In this document: positions 2,740-62,023 of the stretch, piece by piece
Layout: each line of letters starts with the position of its first letter
Numbering within the stretch: position 1 is the stretch's first letter
Sequence record: NC_104726.1
Direction: 5' to 3' (one strand)
Source of the DNA: a phage
DNA length: 64,000 bases
Translations under genes and position numbers: made by a program
The notes under the pieces: model-generated
What the model saw: only the letters and a program-made list of their open reading frames with translations
Told to the model about the DNA's origin: nothing
Database searches by the model: none

Positions 2740-3675
2740 ATGACAAATGAGGAACATATAATGAAGTATTTTAATGCAGACGACCTAGTTGACAAAGGTC
2801 TTGCAACCAGTAGGTATTACCCAGATCTCGGGTTAAAGATCTATAAATATGCTAGAAAAGTATTTTACAACAATTTATGGCATTTGTCCCCTCGTTTACT
2901 GGAGTGCCGAGGCATTGTTGTAGGTAATGAAGGAAATGTTGTGGCATGGCCCTTCACAAAAGTGTTTAACTTGGGAGAAAACTCCACCAACCTGCCTGAC
3001 AATAAGCTTGTGACTGCGGTAGAGAAAAAGAACGGATTCCTTGGTGTGGTATCATCTCATAAAGGTGACCTATTGTTCTCAACAACCGGGTCTCTTGATT
3101 CTCCATATTGTAACCTTGCAAAGGAAACCATCCAAGAGCAATGTGGTAATTTAGATCTTATCAAGAAGGTTATGGGCAATGAAAACATGACATTCATGTT
3201 TGAAATTTGTCACCCTTCAGATCCGCATATTGTTCAAGAAGACCATGGCGCATATTTGATAGGTTGCAGATATAATGATTCTGGAATAATGCTACCAGAA
3301 GCAGCTTTAGATGGGATTGCCAAATACCTTGGTGCAAAACGTCCTAACACTGTGCGTGAAATTCCGTTCAGCTATGCAAAAGAATTAGCTGCAGAAACAA
3401 GAGGTGAAGGGTATATGATTCGTAAGCCTTACTACCCTTATGATCTGCAGCTGAAGATCAAGTCTCCATACTATCTGGCACGGAAGGCAGTAATGAGGGG
3501 TAAAGCTTGGAAGATTTGGGATGATGATATCTTTAAACGTGTTGACGAAGAGTTTTACGGTATGGTAAAATTTATTCGTAGCAACTATACAGAAGATGTG
3601 TGGAATTGCTTATTAGAGCAGGAGCGTCGTGAGATACTGGACTACTATTTCCACAACGAGGACTATATGCAATGA
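2740..3675 (+). CDS. RNA ligase (covalent nucleotidyltransferase, Rnl/Trl1-like)
   Basis: Motif I K-K-N-G (EKKNGFLG, compare Trl1 KANG), motif III FMFEI, motif IV EGYMIRK, motif V LKIKS; divergent from the kinase-phosphoesterase operon. Confidence 0.7.
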   Translation: MTNEEHIMKYFNADDLVDKGLATSRYYPDLGLKIYKYARKVFYNNLWHLSPRLLECRGIVVGNEGNVVAWPFTKVFNLGENSTNLPDNKLVTAVEKKNGFLGVVSSHKGDLLFSTTGSLDSPYCNLAKETIQEQCGNLDLIKKVMGNENMTFMFEICHPSDPHIVQEDHGAYLIGCRYNDSGIMLPEAALDGIAKYLGAKRPNTVREIPFSYAKELAAETRGEGYMIRKPYYPYDLQLKIKSPYYLARKAVMRGKAWKIWDDDIFKRVDEEFYGMVKFIRSNYTEDVWNCLLEQERREILDYYFHNEDYMQ

Positions 3676-4022
3676 AGAAGTGGATTGTGTGGCTTGATGA
3701 TTTTAGAGATCCGTCAGATTATGGACTCCCAGACGCTCTGTGGCTAAAGAATTCTTCTGAGTTTATGGATTTTCTTAATGATAAGAGAAAGCTCTACAGA
3801 CGCGTATCTGAGTGGTATTTTGACAATGATCTAGGTGAAGTGCTTGAAGGGTACGACTGCTTCTCTGCGCTAGAGGAGAAACTTGTATTCGGAAAGCCAC
3901 CACTTATTGACAACGTGATTATTTTCGTGCATACTTCTAATCCATCGGCAGCTCGTAAATTTATGCTTGCTGCTGACTCATTCAAGAAGTTTGGAATAGA
4001 GATTAAACAAAACATCTACTGA
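3672..4022 (+). CDS. hypothetical protein (116 aa)
   Basis: ORF overlapping upstream stop (ATGA); between RNA ligase and Sir2 genes. Confidence 0.5.
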   Translation: MKKWIVWLDDFRDPSDYGLPDALWLKNSSEFMDFLNDKRKLYRRVSEWYFDNDLGEVLEGYDCFSALEEKLVFGKPPLIDNVIIFVHTSNPSAARKFMLAADSFKKFGIEIKQNIY

Positions 4023-4030
4023 GGACACTT

Positions 4031-4792
4031 ATGCGACGACTGATTATTATCTCCGGTGCTGGTTTGAGCGCTGAATCTGGTATTCCCACTTTCCGATCTG
4101 GTAGCACTGCAATGTGGGAGAATTTCAGCATCGATGAGGTGTGCAACATCCACACCTTTGCCAAGAATTACTATAAGGTGCATGACTTTTACAATGCACG
4201 TCGTGTAGCTCTGGGCAGTGTTGATCCTAACCTTGCACATCTTCGGATCGCTGAGTGGTATTCCCGCTGGTCTGGTCGTGTGATCAACCTTACCACCAAT
4301 GTAGATGATTTGCTGGAGCGTGCTGGTGTAAAACATGAAGATATTTTACATGTCCACGGGTATTTGCCTGAAATCACCTACGAAGATGCTGAAGGTAATG
4401 ATGTAATTAAAAATATCGGATACACGGAGGTAGATACAGGCAAGTATACCTGGGTTAAGCCCAATGTAGTGTTATTCGGTGAGGTTGCTCCTAAGTATAC
4501 AGACATGTATGACCTGTTGACATCTCTCACAAGCAATGATATGGTGATCCTAGTAGGTTGTTCTAACACAGTTATTAATTTTAACTGGGAATTGTTTCCT
4601 GCTACTTGTAAAGGCACAAAACTGCTGATTGTAAACAAGTATGACTCGCAGAGTGCAGATGGAAGTGGCATTTCACGTAGCGACCTTTATCAATATGAGG
4701 ATCGCGGGATCCCTGTATGGTTTAACGGTGCTGTTGACGCTTTCTCTGATAAAGCATTTATTGAAACTGTAGAAAACTTTATGGAACTTTAA
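4031..4792 (+). CDS. Sir2 (sirtuin) family NAD-dependent protein
   Basis: Canonical sirtuin signature GAGLSAESGIPTFR, TTNVDDL (QNID-like), catalytic HG in LHVHGYL. Confidence 0.8.
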   Translation: MRRLIIISGAGLSAESGIPTFRSGSTAMWENFSIDEVCNIHTFAKNYYKVHDFYNARRVALGSVDPNLAHLRIAEWYSRWSGRVINLTTNVDDLLERAGVKHEDILHVHGYLPEITYEDAEGNDVIKNIGYTEVDTGKYTWVKPNVVLFGEVAPKYTDMYDLLTSLTSNDMVILVGCSNTVINFNWELFPATCKGTKLLIVNKYDSQSADGSGISRSDLYQYEDRGIPVWFNGAVDAFSDKAFIETVENFMEL

Positions 4793-4805: not shown

Positions 4806-5519
4806 ATGCTGAATACTAAACTGATCGACAACCTGGAAAAACTGTCTCAGCCTGAAAACTACCTTTGGTCTGCCAACTGGGTGGAAAACTGGAACCGTGT
4901 GGCAGCTAAAGTGAAAAAATCATACACACCATTCGAATTACAGCTTAGCTTCATTGAGGAAGAGTTCAATGAGGTTTTGGAAGAGCTGGAGAAAGGTGAT
5001 GGTGGAGATCACCTGCTAAAAGAGGCCTGCGATCTTCACGTTGTCACAAGTTATGCCGCTTATCTTGTTAATGATAATCACGAAAAGTGGTCAAACCTGT
5101 TTGATAATCCACGAGGTCTTAAGTTCAAGATCGGTGAGTTCTATGATACACTGATCGCTGCGAAAAACACATCCAAGCAAAGAGCGTCAGCTTACCGCTT
5201 AGCGGAGTTGTCAACAGCTTTGCTGTTCCAGCTTCGCGGCGATGTGTGTGGGATGATGCGGAAGGTTCTCAAATCTAATGACAGCAAGTTTGCACGGATC
5301 AACCATCTACGATATTCTCACGGTGCCAGTGCAGATATGTCTACTGAATTGCTCATAGAGTTAGAGATTGAAGATCTTGAGCGTCGTTTTGGTGGTCGCT
5401 ACGAAGGTTTCGTTGCTAAAGAGGAGTTCTACAACGGTAATAAAGTTATTATATTCCTTGACAGTAAAGGTAAGATTATGAAGCCTTCGAGCTTCAAGGA
5501 TGTAACAGAGTATATTTAA
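4806..5519 (+). CDS. hypothetical protein, possible MazG-like all-alpha NTP pyrophosphohydrolase
   Basis: Acidic EEEFNEVLEELEKGD...KEACDL pattern resembling the MazG/HisE E-x-x-E metal motif; weak. Confidence 0.45.
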   Translation: MLNTKLIDNLEKLSQPENYLWSANWVENWNRVAAKVKKSYTPFELQLSFIEEEFNEVLEELEKGDGGDHLLKEACDLHVVTSYAAYLVNDNHEKWSNLFDNPRGLKFKIGEFYDTLIAAKNTSKQRASAYRLAELSTALLFQLRGDVCGMMRKVLKSNDSKFARINHLRYSHGASADMSTELLIELEIEDLERRFGGRYEGFVAKEEFYNGNKVIIFLDSKGKIMKPSSFKDVTEYI

Positions 5520-5890: not shown

Positions 5891-6146
5891 TCTTGCTAAA
5901 CCTGTAGAAGCACACCAGTTTGATGGAAGCTCTTCATCAGTATCTGATCTGCAACGGTGGATTGATACAGGTGTGTTTACATCGTCACCTGTTCGGACCA
6001 GAGATATTCGTCGCATGTGTGAGCTTGTTGAGCCGTTTGGCAACTTGGTTTTGTACCAGGGAGATTGGTTAGTTGACTTTATGGGAGACTGGTTGGTAAT
6101 GAGTAAAGAAGAGATGTTTAAAATTTTTAAGGAAGAGGCCGAGTAA
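5877..6146 (+). CDS. hypothetical protein (89 aa)
   Basis: ORF overlapping neighbours on both sides. Confidence 0.45.
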   Translation: MPLFNLAKPVEAHQFDGSSSSVSDLQRWIDTGVFTSSPVRTRDIRRMCELVEPFGNLVLYQGDWLVDFMGDWLVMSKEEMFKIFKEEAE

Positions 6147-7429
6147 TGCATCAAATCAAAACAACACTGTACGCACTGAACAAAGATGGCAGCTACCAAC
6201 AGTGGAAAGTATTCACTGATGGCGAAAAGGTTATCGTAGAGTTTGGCAAGCTTGACGGTAAATTGCAGTACAAAGAGACGGTATGCACACCTAAAAACGT
6301 AGGTCGTGCCAACGAGACTACAGCTGAGCAACAGGCCGAGCTTGAGGCTATCAGCAAGTGGGAAAAACAAGTCCGTCTGGGGTATGTTGAAAACATGGAA
6401 GATTGCGAGCAGGGTGTTGATCTTTTACCTATGCTGGTGCATGACTACCTGAAGCGTGGCAAGGCACTTAAATTACCTTGCTGGATCTTGCGTAAGTTAG
6501 ATGGCCTTCGTCTGCTTGTTGTTTTCCAAAATGGTGAGCCTAAATTTATTTCCCGTGGTAATAAGTCCTACCCTATTCAAGGAAAGCTTTTAGAGCAACT
6601 TCGTTCTTTCCATTCTACCACTGGGATTAAACAACTTGATGGGGAACTATACATTCATGGTCTTCCTTTGCAGAAAATAGTGTCTCTTGCTAAACGGTGG
6701 CGCACACAGGAAGAGATTCAGGCCGAGATCGATAAAGACTATGAGGCAGATAAAAAACGCCGTCATGCAGCAATTAAGGCAGGCTTATCAACATACAAAA
6801 ACTTCAACAAGGTAGATATTCCTGTCGATGTTGAGCCTGTTCGTGATGATTTGCGTTACGGTGGATACTGTAGCTACGATCTGGAGTATCACATTTTTGA
6901 TATTCCTAGCGACAAGGTGTGGTGGGATCCAGAAACAGAGTCTGGACGCTGCAAGGATCTTATGGATGCAGAGGATACCGTTACCACTCTGATGCTTGAT
7001 CATATCAAGGTTGTTGACGCAGAGCTTGCGTACACAGTTGATCATTGCGAAGAATCTGTTGGTATATTCATGTCCGAAGGATATGAAGGTACTATCATGC
7101 GTAATTTCTGCGGTAAATATGAGTATGGTCAGCGAACATCTGAAGCATTGAAATGGAAAAAGTTCAACGACGCAGAGGTGAAAGTTATTGACGTTGAGAA
7201 AGATAAGAATGATGAAGGTGTTCTTATCTGTGTTGACAAGGAAGGTATTGTTGTTAAAATGAAGATGAAAGGTACGCACGAGGAGCGTAGCTATGACAGA
7301 ATGCAGGAAATGATCGGCAAGTTTGTCACCTTCAAATATCAAGCAAGGACAGAAGACAACAACTACCAATTCCCTGTCGGTATCTGCGTCCGAAATGTTA
7401 ACCCAGATACTTGGGAGGTTCTGGAATGA
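6146..7429 (+). CDS. ATP-dependent DNA ligase
   Basis: Motif I KLDGLR (KxDGxR), motif IV EGTIMR, motif V KWKK; 427 aa. Confidence 0.8.
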   Translation: MHQIKTTLYALNKDGSYQQWKVFTDGEKVIVEFGKLDGKLQYKETVCTPKNVGRANETTAEQQAELEAISKWEKQVRLGYVENMEDCEQGVDLLPMLVHDYLKRGKALKLPCWILRKLDGLRLLVVFQNGEPKFISRGNKSYPIQGKLLEQLRSFHSTTGIKQLDGELYIHGLPLQKIVSLAKRWRTQEEIQAEIDKDYEADKKRRHAAIKAGLSTYKNFNKVDIPVDVEPVRDDLRYGGYCSYDLEYHIFDIPSDKVWWDPETESGRCKDLMDAEDTVTTLMLDHIKVVDAELAYTVDHCEESVGIFMSEGYEGTIMRNFCGKYEYGQRTSEALKWKKFNDAEVKVIDVEKDKNDEGVLICVDKEGIVVKMKMKGTHEERSYDRMQEMIGKFVTFKYQARTEDNNYQFPVGICVRNVNPDTWEVLE

Positions 7430-57932: not shown

Positions 57933-57995
57933 AATACATCACTCTCTGTTAGTTTATGCATATATTATACACTGCAGTTTTCAGATGTCAATCTT

Positions 57996-58247
57996 TTACA
58001 GGTTACTCCAGTATAATCGGCATTTACATTTTGGGCAATGAGGTTCTTTTATGTAATAACCATCAGTCTTTGGAACACTTTTTGGTGCAGTTTTAAGATT
58101 GTACCGAGTAAAACACCGGAAGCAGGTTACCTCTCCAACCTGTTGATCGTTTATCCACTCGCCAGAGTAAAGCTCTCTCTTGTTTCTCATAATTCTCTCC
58201 CAAATCCTCTGCAATCTTATACCAAAATCTCCAGCCAGAAAGCACAC
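57996..58247 (-). CDS. small zinc-ribbon protein
   Basis: CFRC...CPKCKC cysteine pairs. Confidence 0.45.
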   Translation of the reverse strand: MCFLAGDFGIRLQRIWERIMRNKRELYSGEWINDQQVGEVTCFRCFTRYNLKTAPKSVPKTDGYYIKEPHCPKCKCRLYWSNL

Positions 58248-58441
58248 GGGAACATTTTGATGATTGAATCTTTACCTGGTTCAGTAGTTCTTTTTCCGTA
58301 TGGTAGGTAGAAATACACTCCTGCAGATTCGAACACAGCCCCTTCGGTCGTATCTATCACAGCCAGAATTAAGATTTTAGTCTCCACAGCGCTCTCCTCT
58401 CTTAGTCGTTGTGGAAACTATATCACCTCAGAAGATGGTCG

Positions 58442-58900
58442 TCAACACTTTTTATACTCTACTACAACCACATCAATATCTGCAGTTGCAAGATTAATTA
58501 CATCTTCTACGTGTTCCCACTTTAGACCGCCAATACCGCATCCGATTTTAGGAATGTAGAACGGCAATGACACACCTTTGAATACCTCGTTGACTCGCTC
58601 AAAACCTTTCATTATTGAGAAGTATTCAGCATTGGGCCCTGGGTAGAACTGGGTATACAGGTTGATTCCATATACGACCCTGTTCTTGGCAAAATGCTCC
58701 CAACAAGAAAACATACCCAGCTTGTCCAGATTACCATAGGCAGTCTCTTTGTCGGCTGCCAGTGCTTGAGGGAACTCACGGGCAATATCTTTCGCTATGC
58801 CTGCACCCATTGTATGAAAGCAGTTACAACCGTGGATCAGGTGACCAGCACCGCTCTTAAAAAGGGAGATTAAATCTCCACCTACAGTATCAATAATCAC
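58442..58900 (-). CDS. Macro-domain protein (ADP-ribose binding/processing)
   Basis: Macro signatures HGCNCFHTMGAGIAKDI and IPKIGCGIGGL (compare N-x-x-G-G-G-V and G-x-G-x-x-G blocks). Confidence 0.7.
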   Translation of the reverse strand: MIIDTVGGDLISLFKSGAGHLIHGCNCFHTMGAGIAKDIAREFPQALAADKETAYGNLDKLGMFSCWEHFAKNRVVYGINLYTQFYPGPNAEYFSIMKGFERVNEVFKGVSLPFYIPKIGCGIGGLKWEHVEDVINLATADIDVVVVEYKKC

Positions 58901-59315
58901 GGTATGTCAGCTCCTCTTCCGCAATTTCAAAAAACTCATCCCAACCTTGTGGCATATTTGAGTTGCCGAAGTGGCTTTCATAGTAAAGGTTCTCACCACT
59001 TGGGAGATAGAAATCTGTTACCTCGTAGAATCCACAATCGTCGCACTCGCCTTCTTCAAACTTGGCCTCAACCTTAATACCTAGGAAGGTGAAAAGTTTA
59101 TGGATATCTTCAGTTTCGAACTCCCAGCAGATATTGTTTTCCGCATCGGTGTAGAACTGGATCAGCAGACCATTATCCAGTTTACCAAAATATTCTGTGA
59201 AGTAACTACCTTCCCAGAAATCTTTATGACAAATAATATCCATGCGCTTGCCCATGATAAAGGTGTGGGCGTTTTGGGCATCGTCACGAATCAGTTTTGG
59301 CATTTCATAGATCAT
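58890..59315 (-). CDS. hypothetical protein (141 aa)
   Basis: ORF overlapping downstream gene start. Confidence 0.5.
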   Translation of the reverse strand: MIYEMPKLIRDDAQNAHTFIMGKRMDIICHKDFWEGSYFTEYFGKLDNGLLIQFYTDAENNICWEFETEDIHKLFTFLGIKVEAKFEEGECDDCGFYEVTDFYLPSGENLYYESHFGNSNMPQGWDEFFEIAEEELTYRDY

Positions 59316-59383: not shown

Positions 59384-59581
59384 TTACACAGGAATTGCTT
59401 CAAATAGACCGTTATCTATACCGTCCTTCAGATAGAGATTATATTCTATGTCGGTATCTGTATAAAGGGCAGCATCCAGCATTCTATCTGTGAGTCCATC
59501 CATTGGGTGGAGAAACCACCACCCACGCCAGTCAAAGTAACAGCCTGGTGCATCTTCTCTTACACGGATTCGATAAATCAT
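59384..59581 (-). CDS. hypothetical protein (65 aa)
   Basis: ORF. Confidence 0.4.
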   Translation of the reverse strand: MIYRIRVREDAPGCYFDWRGWWFLHPMDGLTDRMLDAALYTDTDIEYNLYLKDGIDNGLFEAIPV

Positions 59582-59677
59582 GGGCAGTGGTCTCCTGTTA
59601 GTTATACATCCCAGTTTTCTTCGTTCATCGCGTCCTCCCGTTTTATGAAGTTATAATTGCACACCTTTCAACCTGTG

Positions 59678-60094
59678 TCAACAGAAAACTTCAACAAATT
59701 CTTCCACAGTTTTAATGTCATGGGAAAAAGGTTTACGGCTATAACGGGCAATAGCACTATCAACCACCGCCCGATACTCAAGATCTTCAGAATATTTCAT
59801 GAAGCATTGCAGCGTCTCTGGGCAGATAGCTAAATAGCTCCACCACCCTTCTTCAGATTGGTAGTCGAATCCCATACTTTCCAACCATGAAGCATATACT
59901 CCTGCACCCTCAAGCCAGTGAGTATTTTCATCCAGAAACTTGTTAATAGACATGTGAGCTTCTAAGCATTTATCCAGCTCTTTTCCGTTAACCAGCCACG
60001 CACTGACCGTGGCGCATCCAAGGTCTACAGATTGAGTTGACAGGTTGTATTGGTCATAGTTCTCAGGTTTAACAATGATATCTTCTAATGTCAT
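59678..60094 (-). CDS. hypothetical protein (138 aa)
   Basis: AAGGAGATCTGAAAA SD. Confidence 0.5.
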   Translation of the reverse strand: MTLEDIIVKPENYDQYNLSTQSVDLGCATVSAWLVNGKELDKCLEAHMSINKFLDENTHWLEGAGVYASWLESMGFDYQSEEGWWSYLAICPETLQCFMKYSEDLEYRAVVDSAIARYSRKPFSHDIKTVEEFVEVFC

Positions 60095-60156
60095 TTTTCA
60101 GATCTCCTTATACAAAAATGCCCCACCCTTTCGGGCAGGGCTATGTTAACTAGGTG

Positions 60157-60780
60157 CTAAAAGTATTCGTAGAGGTATCCATCGGGGGCTGGAATTTTTT
60201 CATGAATGTAGTAATCAACACATATTCCGGTTTCTCTTCTACAAGAATTGTGGGATACCCATTCTTTAAGAACGTTTCCATTCATGTCCAGCCTCCTTAC
60301 ATTTTTACACCGTCTACCGCTGGTGCTTCTATGCAATAGAATATCCTCCGTCTGCTTGTCTTTATTTTCTCCCCAGGTCGTTAAACGGATATTATCAAAA
60401 GAGTACCCTTTGAAATCATCTATCCTGTCACAAGAAGGCTTTTTCCTTTTGTCGTATCCGCTGGCTACCCACTGATCATACAACTCTTTGTAACCGTTCA
60501 GGTATAGCCACTCCTTAAACTCTTTTTTGGTGTAAGTCGGAGGCGGGTGACCTCTTTGCTTGCTGTTGCACTTTTGAGCCTTGTACAGCACGCGTATTAC
60601 ACCTTTTTCTGAAGAGTCGTGGGAAAATTGGTCAGCCTCCCTGCTGGCCTTCTTGCAACACTCTTTGCACTTATTAAGATGACCGTCAGACATCTTTGGG
60701 TGTTTGTAGAACTCGGAGAGGTTTTTCACCTCTCCGCACTTGATGCACCTCTTACAATGCGTGGATTCTACTTTTGCCAT
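60157..60780 (-). CDS. putative homing endonuclease-like protein (zinc finger plus degenerate HNH-like block)
   Basis: N-terminal CKRCIKCG...C-x-x-C zinc finger; [23 protein letters not shown] resembles an HNH_3-type core with substitutions; start at internal ATG (MAKVESTHC). Confidence 0.45.
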
Positions 60781-62023
60781 ATTGCAAACCCACCGGAGCG
60801 AAAGGTATGTCATCACAGAACTCATACTGTGCTGGATTCTGATCCATTGGGTCATCTTCCTCATCATTTACAGGAGGAGCGTCTACAGTGTTTTGCTGTG
60901 GAGCTGCTTCCTGTTTGGCAGCCTGAGGTTCTTGATGGTCAGTGGACTCAGCACCGTTCTTGATCCAATCGTACAACGGCTCAGCCAGATTAGTCAAGAC
61001 ATCTTTTGCTTCTGCAGTAATTGCCGCTGCAAAATCATCAACTTTCGTTTTCTTGTCAATACGGCGACAAGCGTTCAACACCGCATTACCGACACTGGCA
61101 CCTACTTCATCTTCAGTTCGGTTGGTGGCTTGAGCATACTCTTTCTTAAGCTCAATAGTGACTACGTGTAGTGTTTTAGCCACTCCTAGTGGGTCGTCTA
61201 CCTTAAACCCGCGATCCAGGATGATTTGCAACGCATTGATGCTATGCCCCGTTTCCACACCGATAGGGTCGTAAGAGGATTTACGCTTGCCACCAGAGCC
61301 TTGAGTACCGTTCTCTGCCTTAGGAGGATAGGCTTTGAAACCACTGATAATGTTTCCGGTGTCTTTGTCAACAATGGCTGCAACACGACCACCTACCACC
61401 AGGTCTTTAAGCTGCTCATCAGTTACAACCATAGCACCTTCGCCAATCTTGTGGTCATTAACAGTAACCACGTTGCCAACAATCTGAGTCACATCACCAT
61501 AGATGCGTAAAACGTCCTGATTGGCATTCTGCTGAGGTTTCTGCTTCTGGCCTTGTGATTGTGCACCTTGTTGCTGTTTTTGCTGCTGAGTCGCTGCTGG
61601 AGCCTCTCCTGCACCCAGCTTAACCATCTTAGCCAGTGAGCCTTTGTAGTAGGTCTTACCGTTATGCTCGTTTGCCTTCAAAGGGATATTTACGATCCAT
61701 CCTGGCGTTACGGTTTCCCACTTGTCATCAATTTTAACAGAGACAGAGTCTTGATGACCCGGTTTAAGCAGCTTATCGCCCATACTGATCCAAACTTCTT
61801 CACCACCTTGAAGTAGGTTATCAGAGGAATCCAGTTCAGAAATCAGTAAAGAGATGGTGTGGCTGGACTCAATTTTCTTACCTTGCCACACAGTGGTTTT
61901 AATACCTGTTGTAGGATCAGCACCTTTGATAGGCTTGATGCTGACGCGTTTAATCATGCCGTGAGCCAGTAAAACAGTTTCACGCGGATTCATCGGGTTA
62001 GCGAATTGTTGAATAACGCTCAT
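60752..62023 (-). CDS. putative single-stranded DNA-binding protein (OB-fold N-domain, Gln-rich linker, acidic tail with DDIPF)
   Basis: Acidic C-terminal region [21 protein letters not shown] resembling the SSB tip motif DDDIPF, followed by 16 extra residues that overlap the next gene. Confidence 0.45.

Follow-up and report, generated by a model that had tools for sequence, protein, structure and literature searches.

The closest described relative of the gene analysed here is tk.4 of phage T4. When a T4 transposon library was challenged with DarTG2, tk.4 emerged as the single significant conditionally essential gene, and a clean tk.4 knockout makes T4 DarTG2-sensitive, for which the gene was renamed adfM, anti-DarT factor Macrodomain (bioRxiv 10.1101/2025.11.20.689424, a November 2025 preprint). 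The support is genetic, and enzymatic removal of ADP-ribose from DNA by T4 AdfM is a proposal of that preprint. T4 without adfA and adfN is still DarTG2-resistant (PMC11825919), and a further anti-DarT factor was therefore expected. Phage T5 is strongly restricted by DarTG2 and serves as the DarTG2-sensitive control phage (bioRxiv 10.1101/2025.11.20.689424; PMC11825919). Another stand-alone phage macrodomain that counters DarTG2, PhiKZ gp104, was independently named AdfM (Cell Rep 2026, PMC13309987); it removes DarT2 ADP-ribose from ssDNA biochemically and is imported into the phage nucleus (PMC13309987).

Robust thymidine-ADP-ribose hydrolysis has so far been described only in the macrodomain class of DarG, TARG1 with its fly paralogues, and SCO6735 (PMC12879935). 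SCO6735 of Streptomyces coelicolor is a stand-alone protein of the ALC1-like class that cleaves dT-ADP-ribose on DNA and rescues DarT toxicity; the Q85A substitution inactivates the enzyme, and a water-activated mechanism involving Val25 and Gln85 was proposed (PMC9411070). The known substrates of yeast Poa1p are small molecules, ADP-ribose-1''-phosphate and O-acetyl-ADP-ribose, and PMC12846349, citing Chiu et al. 2021, gives His23, Asn26, Ser30 and Gly33 as its key residues. Macrodomains are carried by 41% of myoviruses (Iyer et al., PMC9503650).

The gene lies in a 64,000-nt stretch of phage DNA (the window, by which we mean the whole stretch analysed) and is a routine, previously annotated accessory gene, already known as the Vequintavirus counterpart of T4 Tk.4/AdfM. 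Over the surrounding 3.5 kb, identity is 98% with Escherichia phage MiataMamis and 95% with rV5, and 121 Vequintavirus-like records match; the window is thus DNA of a Vequintavirus, an rV5-like phage of E. coli. The rV5 orthologue, gp204, is annotated as 'tk.4', similar to RB49 Tk.4; other Vequintavirus-like records label the orthologue 'macro domain protein', 'phosphatase' or 'Poa1p-like family protein'. Arms-race-like accelerated divergence was not seen within Vequintavirus, as the amino acid identity to rV5 gp204 (96.7%) is similar to that of neighbouring genes. Like T4 tk.4, this is a non-structural gene within a run of small genes; the two differ in phage group (Vequintavirus vs Tequatrovirus) and in their neighbours, T4 tk.4 being located between vs and tk.3. 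The macrodomain gene sits ~6 kb downstream of the DNA polymerase gene, in the same orientation, within a long series of small genes without an assigned function. Its immediate surroundings, from upstream to downstream, are as follows.

60120..60141, minus strand: strong terminator-like hairpin (9 bp, 7 GC, T-run), the probable upstream boundary of the transcription unit
59653-59681, minus strand: second candidate sigma-70-type promoter, a consensus match only
59438..59466, minus strand: candidate sigma-70-type promoter TTTATA-17-TATAAT upstream of the unit, a consensus match only
58890..59315, minus strand: 141-aa ORF upstream of the macrodomain gene (PHROG_8157, function unknown; counterpart of rV5 gp205)
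58911..58916, minus strand: Shine-Dalgarno-like GAGGAG, 10 nt 5' of the macrodomain GTG, read from the sequence
58442..58900, minus strand: macrodomain CDS, 152 aa, GTG start, TGA stop within the coordinates
58417..58445, minus strand: promoter-like site, TTGACG-17-TATAGT extended by a TG, which overlaps the stop codon of the macrodomain gene

The stop of the 141-aa ORF and the start of the macrodomain ORF overlap by 11 nt, an arrangement that makes it probable that the two are co-transcribed and translationally coupled. A single probable unit would run in order through ORF65, ORF141 and the macrodomain gene, bounded by the promoter-like sites and the terminator-like hairpin, and this predicted layout is compatible with early or middle expression. 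The small gene that follows (58217-58387) may be driven by the promoter-like site over the stop codon. Residues 1-30 of the 152-aa protein align to the N-terminus of T4 Tk.4, in support of the full-length GTG start. Apart from one phage zinc-binding domain, the neighbouring ORFs gave no Pfam match, and they fall in PHROGs of unknown function; in the same Pfam and PHROG annotation of flanking ORFs, neither a darT gene nor an ADP-ribosyltransferase gene was identified beside the macrodomain gene. Across the 64,000 nt the family HMM returns this ORF alone (207 bits; next best E 2.3), and thus no second macrodomain.

That the ORF at 58442-58900 encodes a macro-domain protein, as a first-pass annotation made from the letters alone had proposed, is confirmed far beyond chance. 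The Macro HMM search suggested there gave 25.9 bits for Pfam PF01661, above the gathering cut-off of 22 (E 1e-5). The protein also matches PHROG_335 ('phosphatase'; E 1.2e-59) and, over the macro portion, the PADLOC DarG model (E 1.5e-13), and a sequence search of the PDB matched M. tuberculosis DarG, yeast Poa1p, SCO6735, BT1257 and TARG1. The AlphaFold2 model (mean pLDDT 95.4, pTM 0.90; input alignment n=50 sequences) adopts a three-layer alpha/beta/alpha macro fold. This is supported by Foldseek, for which the best solved structures were TARG1, DarG (T. aquaticus and M. tuberculosis), Poa1p, BT1257 and SCO6735, at a probability of 1.00 and TM 0.72-0.76. Membership in DarG itself is ruled out: the NCBIfam DarG model (NF048014; E 1.8e-12) scored 47.2 bits vs a cut-off of 250, with profile positions 8-144 of 338 matched, and the protein is a 152-aa single domain with no darT neighbour and no Lys80.

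Residue conservation was counted over 258 diverse family representatives, from clusters <50% identical to one another. Both of the glycine-rich ADP-ribose-binding loops noticed in the first-pass annotation are intact and near-invariant in this set. Together with two further motifs, they are encoded at the following positions.

58820..58834, minus strand: clade signature H23-G24-C25-N26-C27 (H in 97%, G in 99%, C25 in 88%, N in 257/258 and C27 in 100% of representatives)
58793..58810, minus strand: glycine-rich loop 1, M31-G32-A33-G34-I35-A36, the predicted phosphate/ADP-ribose-binding loop, near-invariant in the family
58649..58663, minus strand: N80-L81-Y82-T83-Q84, with Q84 at the column of DarG K80, TARG1 K84, PhiKZ AdfM K78 and SCO6735 Gln85
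58526..58552, minus strand: glycine-rich loop 2, P117-K-I-G120-C-G122-I-G124-G125, with P, G120, G122 and G125 each conserved in 96% or more of the representatives

Loop 1 (MGAGIA) aligns with MGKGIA of DarG and MGAGIA of TARG1, and loop 2 (PKIGCGIGG) with PPLGVGNGG of DarG and PRIGCGLDR of TARG1. By alignment N26 is the counterpart of DarG N22, H23-G24 of SCO6735 H24-V25, and H23 of Poa1p H23. Conservation is at least 97% for each of H23, N26, C27, D50, N80 and Y82. The extended clade signature (H23-G-C-N26-C27, D50, K60, N80-x-Y82-T-Q84) is complete in both the window protein and T4 Tk.4, and its residues each occur in at least 93% of the 258 representatives, with the exception of C25 at 88%.

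The identity of residue 84 bears directly on the predicted chemistry. Both MAFFT and HMM alignments place N80-L-Y-T-Q84 opposite N-F-P-T-K80 of DarG, I-T-K84 of TARG1 (the sequence used being identical to PDB 2LGR) and P-T-K78 of PhiKZ gp104; this column holds Gln in 254/258 family representatives and Lys in 0/258. A missing catalytic lysine might be taken as the mark of an inactive reader domain. This explanation was ruled out, and Gln84 is not regarded as a defect, because SCO6735, which cleaves thymidine-ADP-ribose, carries Gln85 at this column and is no longer active once that residue is mutated. The chemistry of the window protein is, by analogy, probably SCO6735-type rather than of the lysine-dependent DarG/TARG1 type.

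The window protein and T4 Tk.4 are 39% identical over 150 aa, end to end (E 2e-43). Both are single-domain members of the same clade (152 vs 155 aa) and have in common the signature HGCNC...D...NLYTQ...P-x-IG-x-G-x-G. In hhalign comparisons the family profile matches T4 Tk.4 at E 1e-49 vs E 1e-13 to 3e-15 for SCO6735, BT1257, DarG and TARG1, from which it is about equidistant; these near-equal distances mark the Tk.4 family, on profile evidence, as its own clade within the ALC1-like/DarG/TARG1/SCO6735 class. The alignment to SCO6735 (probability 98.3%, E 1e-14) pairs Q84 with Q85 and H23-G24-C25-N26 with H24-V25-C26-N27, and it recovers the published five-residue-longer mobile loop of SCO6735. 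Both proteins are stand-alone ALC1-like macrodomains (SCO6735, PDB 5E3B) with a Gln at the K80/K84 column and an H-x-C-N motif. Unlike the window protein, to which it is ~27% identical, SCO6735 is the product of a DNA-damage-inducible cellular gene. Its DNA-contacting K34 and K89 are without counterparts in the window protein, which has A33 and a mobile loop five residues shorter. SCO6735 in turn lacks the Asp50 and Lys60 that are invariant throughout the Tk.4 clade.

The DarG macrodomain (T. aquaticus, M. tuberculosis; PDB 5M31, 5M3E, 5M3I) resembles the window protein at a TM of about 0.75, with Asn22 corresponding to Asn26, the same glycine loops and the same presumed substrate, DarT2-made thymidine-ADP-ribose. 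Unlike DarG, the window protein has no C-terminal DarT-binding domain and no adjoining darT, and Lys80 is replaced by Gln84. Human TARG1/OARD1 (PDB 4J5R), which also cleaves thymidine-ADP-ribose, is among the best sequence and fold matches, but its Lys84/Asp125 catalytic dyad is Gln84/Gly124 here. The likeness to Poa1p (PDB 6LFQ-6LFU) is seen in IHGCNC vs IHSCNC of Poa1p, with His23 and Asn26; the key Poa1p positions are occupied by His23, Asn26, Thr30 and Ala33, and the sequence alignment is limited to 40 residues at the N-terminus and 32 at the C-terminus. In fold, binding loops, clade and active-site residue identity, the protein is a stand-alone, single-domain macrodomain of the T4 Tk.4/AdfM clade, and it would be expected to bind ADP-ribose and to act as a hydrolase.

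The macrodomain family is very common among phages. By tblastn, relatives were found in 2,836/50,697 phage records, including RB49, whose Tk.4 is the closest match outside the gene's own genus (69% identity), T4-like phages (about 40-46%), and FelixO1-like, Pakpunavirus, Acinetobacter, Aeromonas and Vibrio phages. Among 1.84 billion cluster representatives, a profile search gave 1,232 family members at E <= 1e-30 and 8,562 at E <= 1e-10. The whole genome of T5 (121,750 bp) holds neither a Tk.4-type nor a PhiKZ-type macrodomain by hmmsearch --max (best E 0.016) or tblastn (none at E <= 1). The match at E 0.016 falls where annotated genes run on the other strand. A DarTG2-restricted phage lacking a homologue agrees with an anti-DarT2 reading of the family, as one data point.

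Bacterial members were collected from GTDB species genomes as 76 loci, mostly Rhodobacteraceae. A DarT2 homologue within 4 kb was found in 0/76, the query being one P. aeruginosa DarT2 sequence of limited sensitivity. The Ruegeria homologue directly follows rpoC and precedes rpsL-rpsG-fusA, and in a second conserved context the homologue is flanked by genes for a PLP enzyme and an EEP-family protein. On the 0/76 count, from this single query, and with housekeeping genes as the conserved neighbours, we rejected the idea that the bacterial clade members are antitoxins beside DarT. An origin of the clade in DarTG operons is therefore not obvious, and the cellular members may serve a more general ADP-ribose removal, which keeps alive the small-molecule and protein-substrate readings considered below.

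The reading we lean towards, and hold to be somewhat probable, is that the gene protects phage DNA from DarT2-type thymidine ADP-ribosylation by SCO6735-like, Gln-dependent hydrolysis. It would thus act like an orphan antitoxin, a view taken because the protein is homologous to T4 Tk.4/AdfM, whose knockout sensitises T4 to DarTG2. The best fold matches belong to the thymidine-ADP-ribose-hydrolase class, which we counted in favour of a DarT2-type substrate. An earlier suggestion that the gene counters host ADP-ribosylating defences, with DarT named, is in line with the DarTG2 phenotype of its T4 homologue at 39% identity and is, for this phage, an extrapolation. We likewise infer ADP-ribose binding, a thymidine-ADP-ribose substrate, a Gln-type mechanism and an anti-DarTG2 role from these relationships; a literature search found no published DarTG2 results for Vequintavirinae or Bas54.

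In the proposed mechanism, the macrodomain gene would probably be expressed from host-type promoters, along with the other small non-structural genes of the leftward block that lies downstream of the DNA polymerase. Upon triggering of a host DarTG2-type system, DarT2 would put ADP-ribose on N3 of thymidine in single-stranded phage DNA. The macrodomain enzyme would grip the ADP-ribose via its two glycine-rich loops, with Gln84 and the backbone of the residue after His23 (Gly24) positioning the distal ribose and an activated water, as proposed for SCO6735. Hydrolysis of the ribose-thymine bond would then restore replicable DNA. If so, one more phage family is likely armed against DarTG2, and the prediction follows that rV5-like phages, which are therapy candidates, resist DarTG2. 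Several observations count against this reading. An identity of 39% to T4 Tk.4 leaves room for a different substrate specificity, and the DNA-contacting lysines of SCO6735 (K34, K89) are without equivalents. The bacterial members in housekeeping contexts, with 0/76 near a DarT2 by one query, suggest a more general ancestral substrate. Finally, His23/Asn26/Thr30 is also the Poa1p set, which serves small-molecule ADP-ribose derivatives (PMC12846349).

This last point leads to the alternative that survives best, although we consider it unlikely: a Poa1p-type small-molecule hydrolase, acting as an ADP-ribose-1''-phosphate phosphatase or an O-acetyl-ADP-ribose deacetylase. Of the Poa1p residues, His23 and Asn26 are kept and Ser30 is replaced by Thr. 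Iyer et al. (PMC9503650) argued that most phage macrodomains target low-molecular-weight ADP-ribose derivatives. A Pakpunavirus homologue lies beside NAD+-reconstitution genes (PMC12846349), a Vibrio phage Thalassa homologue lies beside a ribose-phosphate pyrophosphokinase-like gene, and the bacterial members look like housekeeping genes and show no link to DarT by the single DarT2 query. The window itself contains an overlapping operon that belongs to a predicted RNA-repair system (PMC9503650).

2740-3675: Rnl1-type RNA ligase, in an overlapping operon with the cREC and Sir2 genes
3672-4022: cREC domain protein, directly before the Sir2 gene
4031-4792, on the opposite strand to the macrodomain gene: SIR2-family protein (Pfam E 2.4e-27)

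The rV5-type ligase-cREC-Sir2 neighbourhood was predicted to form an NAD+-dependent RNA-repair system, with a KptA-like sirtuin that yields ADPr>P (Iyer et al., PMC9503650). In one version of the small-molecule reading, the Sir2 protein, acting in the manner of KptA/Tpt1, would produce ADP-ribose cyclic phosphate, cREC would open it and the macrodomain would remove the remaining phosphate; for a module with such a product, a Poa1p-like macrodomain is a logical last step. Processing of Sir2 products by the macrodomain had also been put forward in the first-pass annotation, and of this suggestion the Sir2 gene at 4031-4792 is real (E 2.4e-27), but the link is weak. The Sir2 gene lies 54 kb from the macrodomain gene and on the other strand, and no macrodomain gene adjoins the rV5-type RNA-repair neighbourhood as described by Iyer et al. 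(PMC9503650). The Sir2 RNA-repair pathway is itself a prediction. T4 tk.4 has a demonstrated DarTG2 phenotype (bioRxiv 10.1101/2025.11.20.689424).

The phyletic record also separates the two genes. Sir2-clade members were counted in 1,013 phage records, of which many are T5-like, and the macrodomain in 2,836, so that at least 1,823 macrodomain-positive phage records (at least 64%) are without Sir2. In a spread sample of 60 macrodomain-positive records none was T5-like, and T5 has Sir2 (T5.102) but, in the whole-genome search, no macrodomain. The two distributions are independent. Obligate coupling of the macrodomain to Sir2 is ruled out by these record counts and by the T5 search. No sirtuin is known in T4.

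A combined proposal is more speculative, and we hold it with low confidence. Here the Tk.4 clade would be a distinct lysine-free anti-DarT2 enzyme (using Gln84, possibly with Asp50/Lys60) that does double duty on ADP-ribose-phosphate by-products of RNA repair in Vequintaviruses, and that was recruited from an unrecognised cellular ADP-ribose-removal function. Were such a cellular recruitment true, it is to this function that the bacterial members (Ruegeria, rpoC/rpsL) would point.

It is improbable that the enzyme reverses ADP-ribosylation of protein or RNA rather than DNA, acting on marks left by other host defence ADP-ribosyltransferases or by such enzymes from the phage itself or from competing phages. 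Two of the nearest structures, TARG1 and SCO6735, do also act on protein (PMC9411070), macrodomains are versatile (PMC9503650), and the position of the Ruegeria homologue directly after rpoC is compatible with a link to transcription or translation. However, T-even phages carry tk.4 and are nevertheless robustly restricted by CmdTAC, an mRNA ADP-ribosyltransferase system, as reported in PMC11618068; the clade therefore evidently does not neutralise the CmdTAC RNA modification. The flanking ORFs of the macrodomain gene include no identified ADP-ribosyltransferase gene, and the sole known phenotype of the clade is DarTG2-specific.

Least probable is a non-catalytic protein that blocks DarT2 by direct interaction or shields ADP-ribosylated sites: catalytically dead SCO6735, DarG and TARG1 still inhibit DarT in vitro through interaction (PMC9411070), AdfA and AdfB are direct DarT inhibitors (PMC13309987) and the DarG/TARG1 catalytic lysine is missing in the clade, but the polar pocket residues H23, N26, C27, D50, N80, Y82 and Q84 are near-invariant over clusters <50% identical, which is the pattern of an enzyme rather than that of a fast-evolving inhibitor surface. 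SCO6735 also depends on the Gln for catalysis (PMC9411070), and phages of many host genera carry members of the clade, as do, by one DarT2 query, bacteria without a DarT neighbour.

The two phage proteins called AdfM were also compared. PhiKZ gp104, translated from the sequence given in the paper, is 22% identical to the window protein (E 7e-5). It is DarG-type, matching M. tuberculosis DarG at E 9e-25 and carrying an FPTK motif with Lys78, and it thus represents a separate, lysine-bearing lineage. By these comparisons the name AdfM covers two unrelated lineages, and it is the T4 Tk.4 lineage that includes the window protein. Since the T4-type lineage has genetic support alone, the biochemistry of gp104, the sole biochemically tested phage 'AdfM', is not transferable to it without a test. 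A modest new point is one of nomenclature, as AdfM spans the lysine-type, DarG-like PhiKZ gp104 as well as the glutamine-type T4 Tk.4 and the window protein.

Two residues of the macrodomain protein (window 58442-58900, minus strand) set the Tk.4 clade, the macrodomain proteins related to T4 Tk.4, apart from DarG, SCO6735, BT1257 and TARG1, all of which lack them. Conservation was estimated from 258 family representatives.

58751-58753, Asp50 codon; Asp in 99% of the Tk.4 clade
58721-58723, Lys60 codon; Lys in 93% of the clade, Arg in the remainder

Asp50 and Lys60 could form a relocated acid/base pair or else could contact DNA.

The start of the macrodomain gene is annotated differently from record to record. 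In MiataMamis (PP925834, 7443-7811) the CDS begins at the internal Met31 (369 nt), which removes strand 1 and the HGCNC signature motif from the protein, while in PMBT16 (PP554575, 44992-45489) it is longer, at 498 nt. Homology to T4 Tk.4 supports the 459-nt reading from a GTG start. Additionally, 16 GenBank records within MG065646-MG065677, unannotated and titled "Campylobacter phage" with C. jejuni as the stated host, are 94-96% identical to the E. coli Vequintavirus region around this gene; these are probably mislabelled or contaminant assemblies.

Bacterial Tk.4-clade genes (76 loci) are found mainly in Rhodobacteraceae. At the Ruegeria atlantica locus (4001-4444) and 11 similar loci, the gene lies in a core housekeeping region, with rpoC on one side and rpsL-rpsG-fusA on the other; at Shimia-type loci it is flanked by genes for a PLP-dependent enzyme and an endonuclease/exonuclease/phosphatase-family protein. 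A search with a single P. aeruginosa DarT2 query placed a homologue within 4 kb of the clade gene at none of the 76 loci.

Elsewhere in the window, an Rnl1-type RNA ligase, a cREC protein and a SIR2-family protein are encoded in one operon (2740-4792, plus strand), the starts and stops of its genes overlapping or abutting.

2740-3675, plus strand, Rnl1-type RNA ligase, first gene
3672-4022, plus strand, cREC (cyclic-phosphate-processing receiver) domain protein, second gene
4031-4792, plus strand, SIR2-family protein, third gene
6146-7429, ATP-dependent DNA ligase, downstream of the operon

This arrangement is the sirtuin "RNA repair" neighbourhood of rV5 type that Iyer et al. 2022 (PMC9503650) predicted.

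The surroundings of the macrodomain gene were also compared with those in rV5.

57964-57991, minus strand, sigma-70 promoter with a perfect consensus match (TTGACA-16-TATAAT), ~450 nt downstream of the macrodomain gene
60157-60867, minus strand, endonuclease VII/HNH-like ORF (PHROG_1035, E 2e-41)
60752-62023, minus strand, 423-aa gene preceding that ORF

The promoter has its positional counterpart in the annotated P205 of rV5. Just downstream of the macrodomain region, rV5 carries an extra small gene absent from the window, gp202 (213 nt; 5198-5410 in the rV5 locus), and the alignment is interrupted at this junction (58192-58219). If the endonuclease VII/HNH-like ORF is taken from its first ATG, it shares 116 nt with the 3' end of the 423-aa gene. 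Because the rV5 version is annotated as shorter (624 nt), the true start is probably an internal one.
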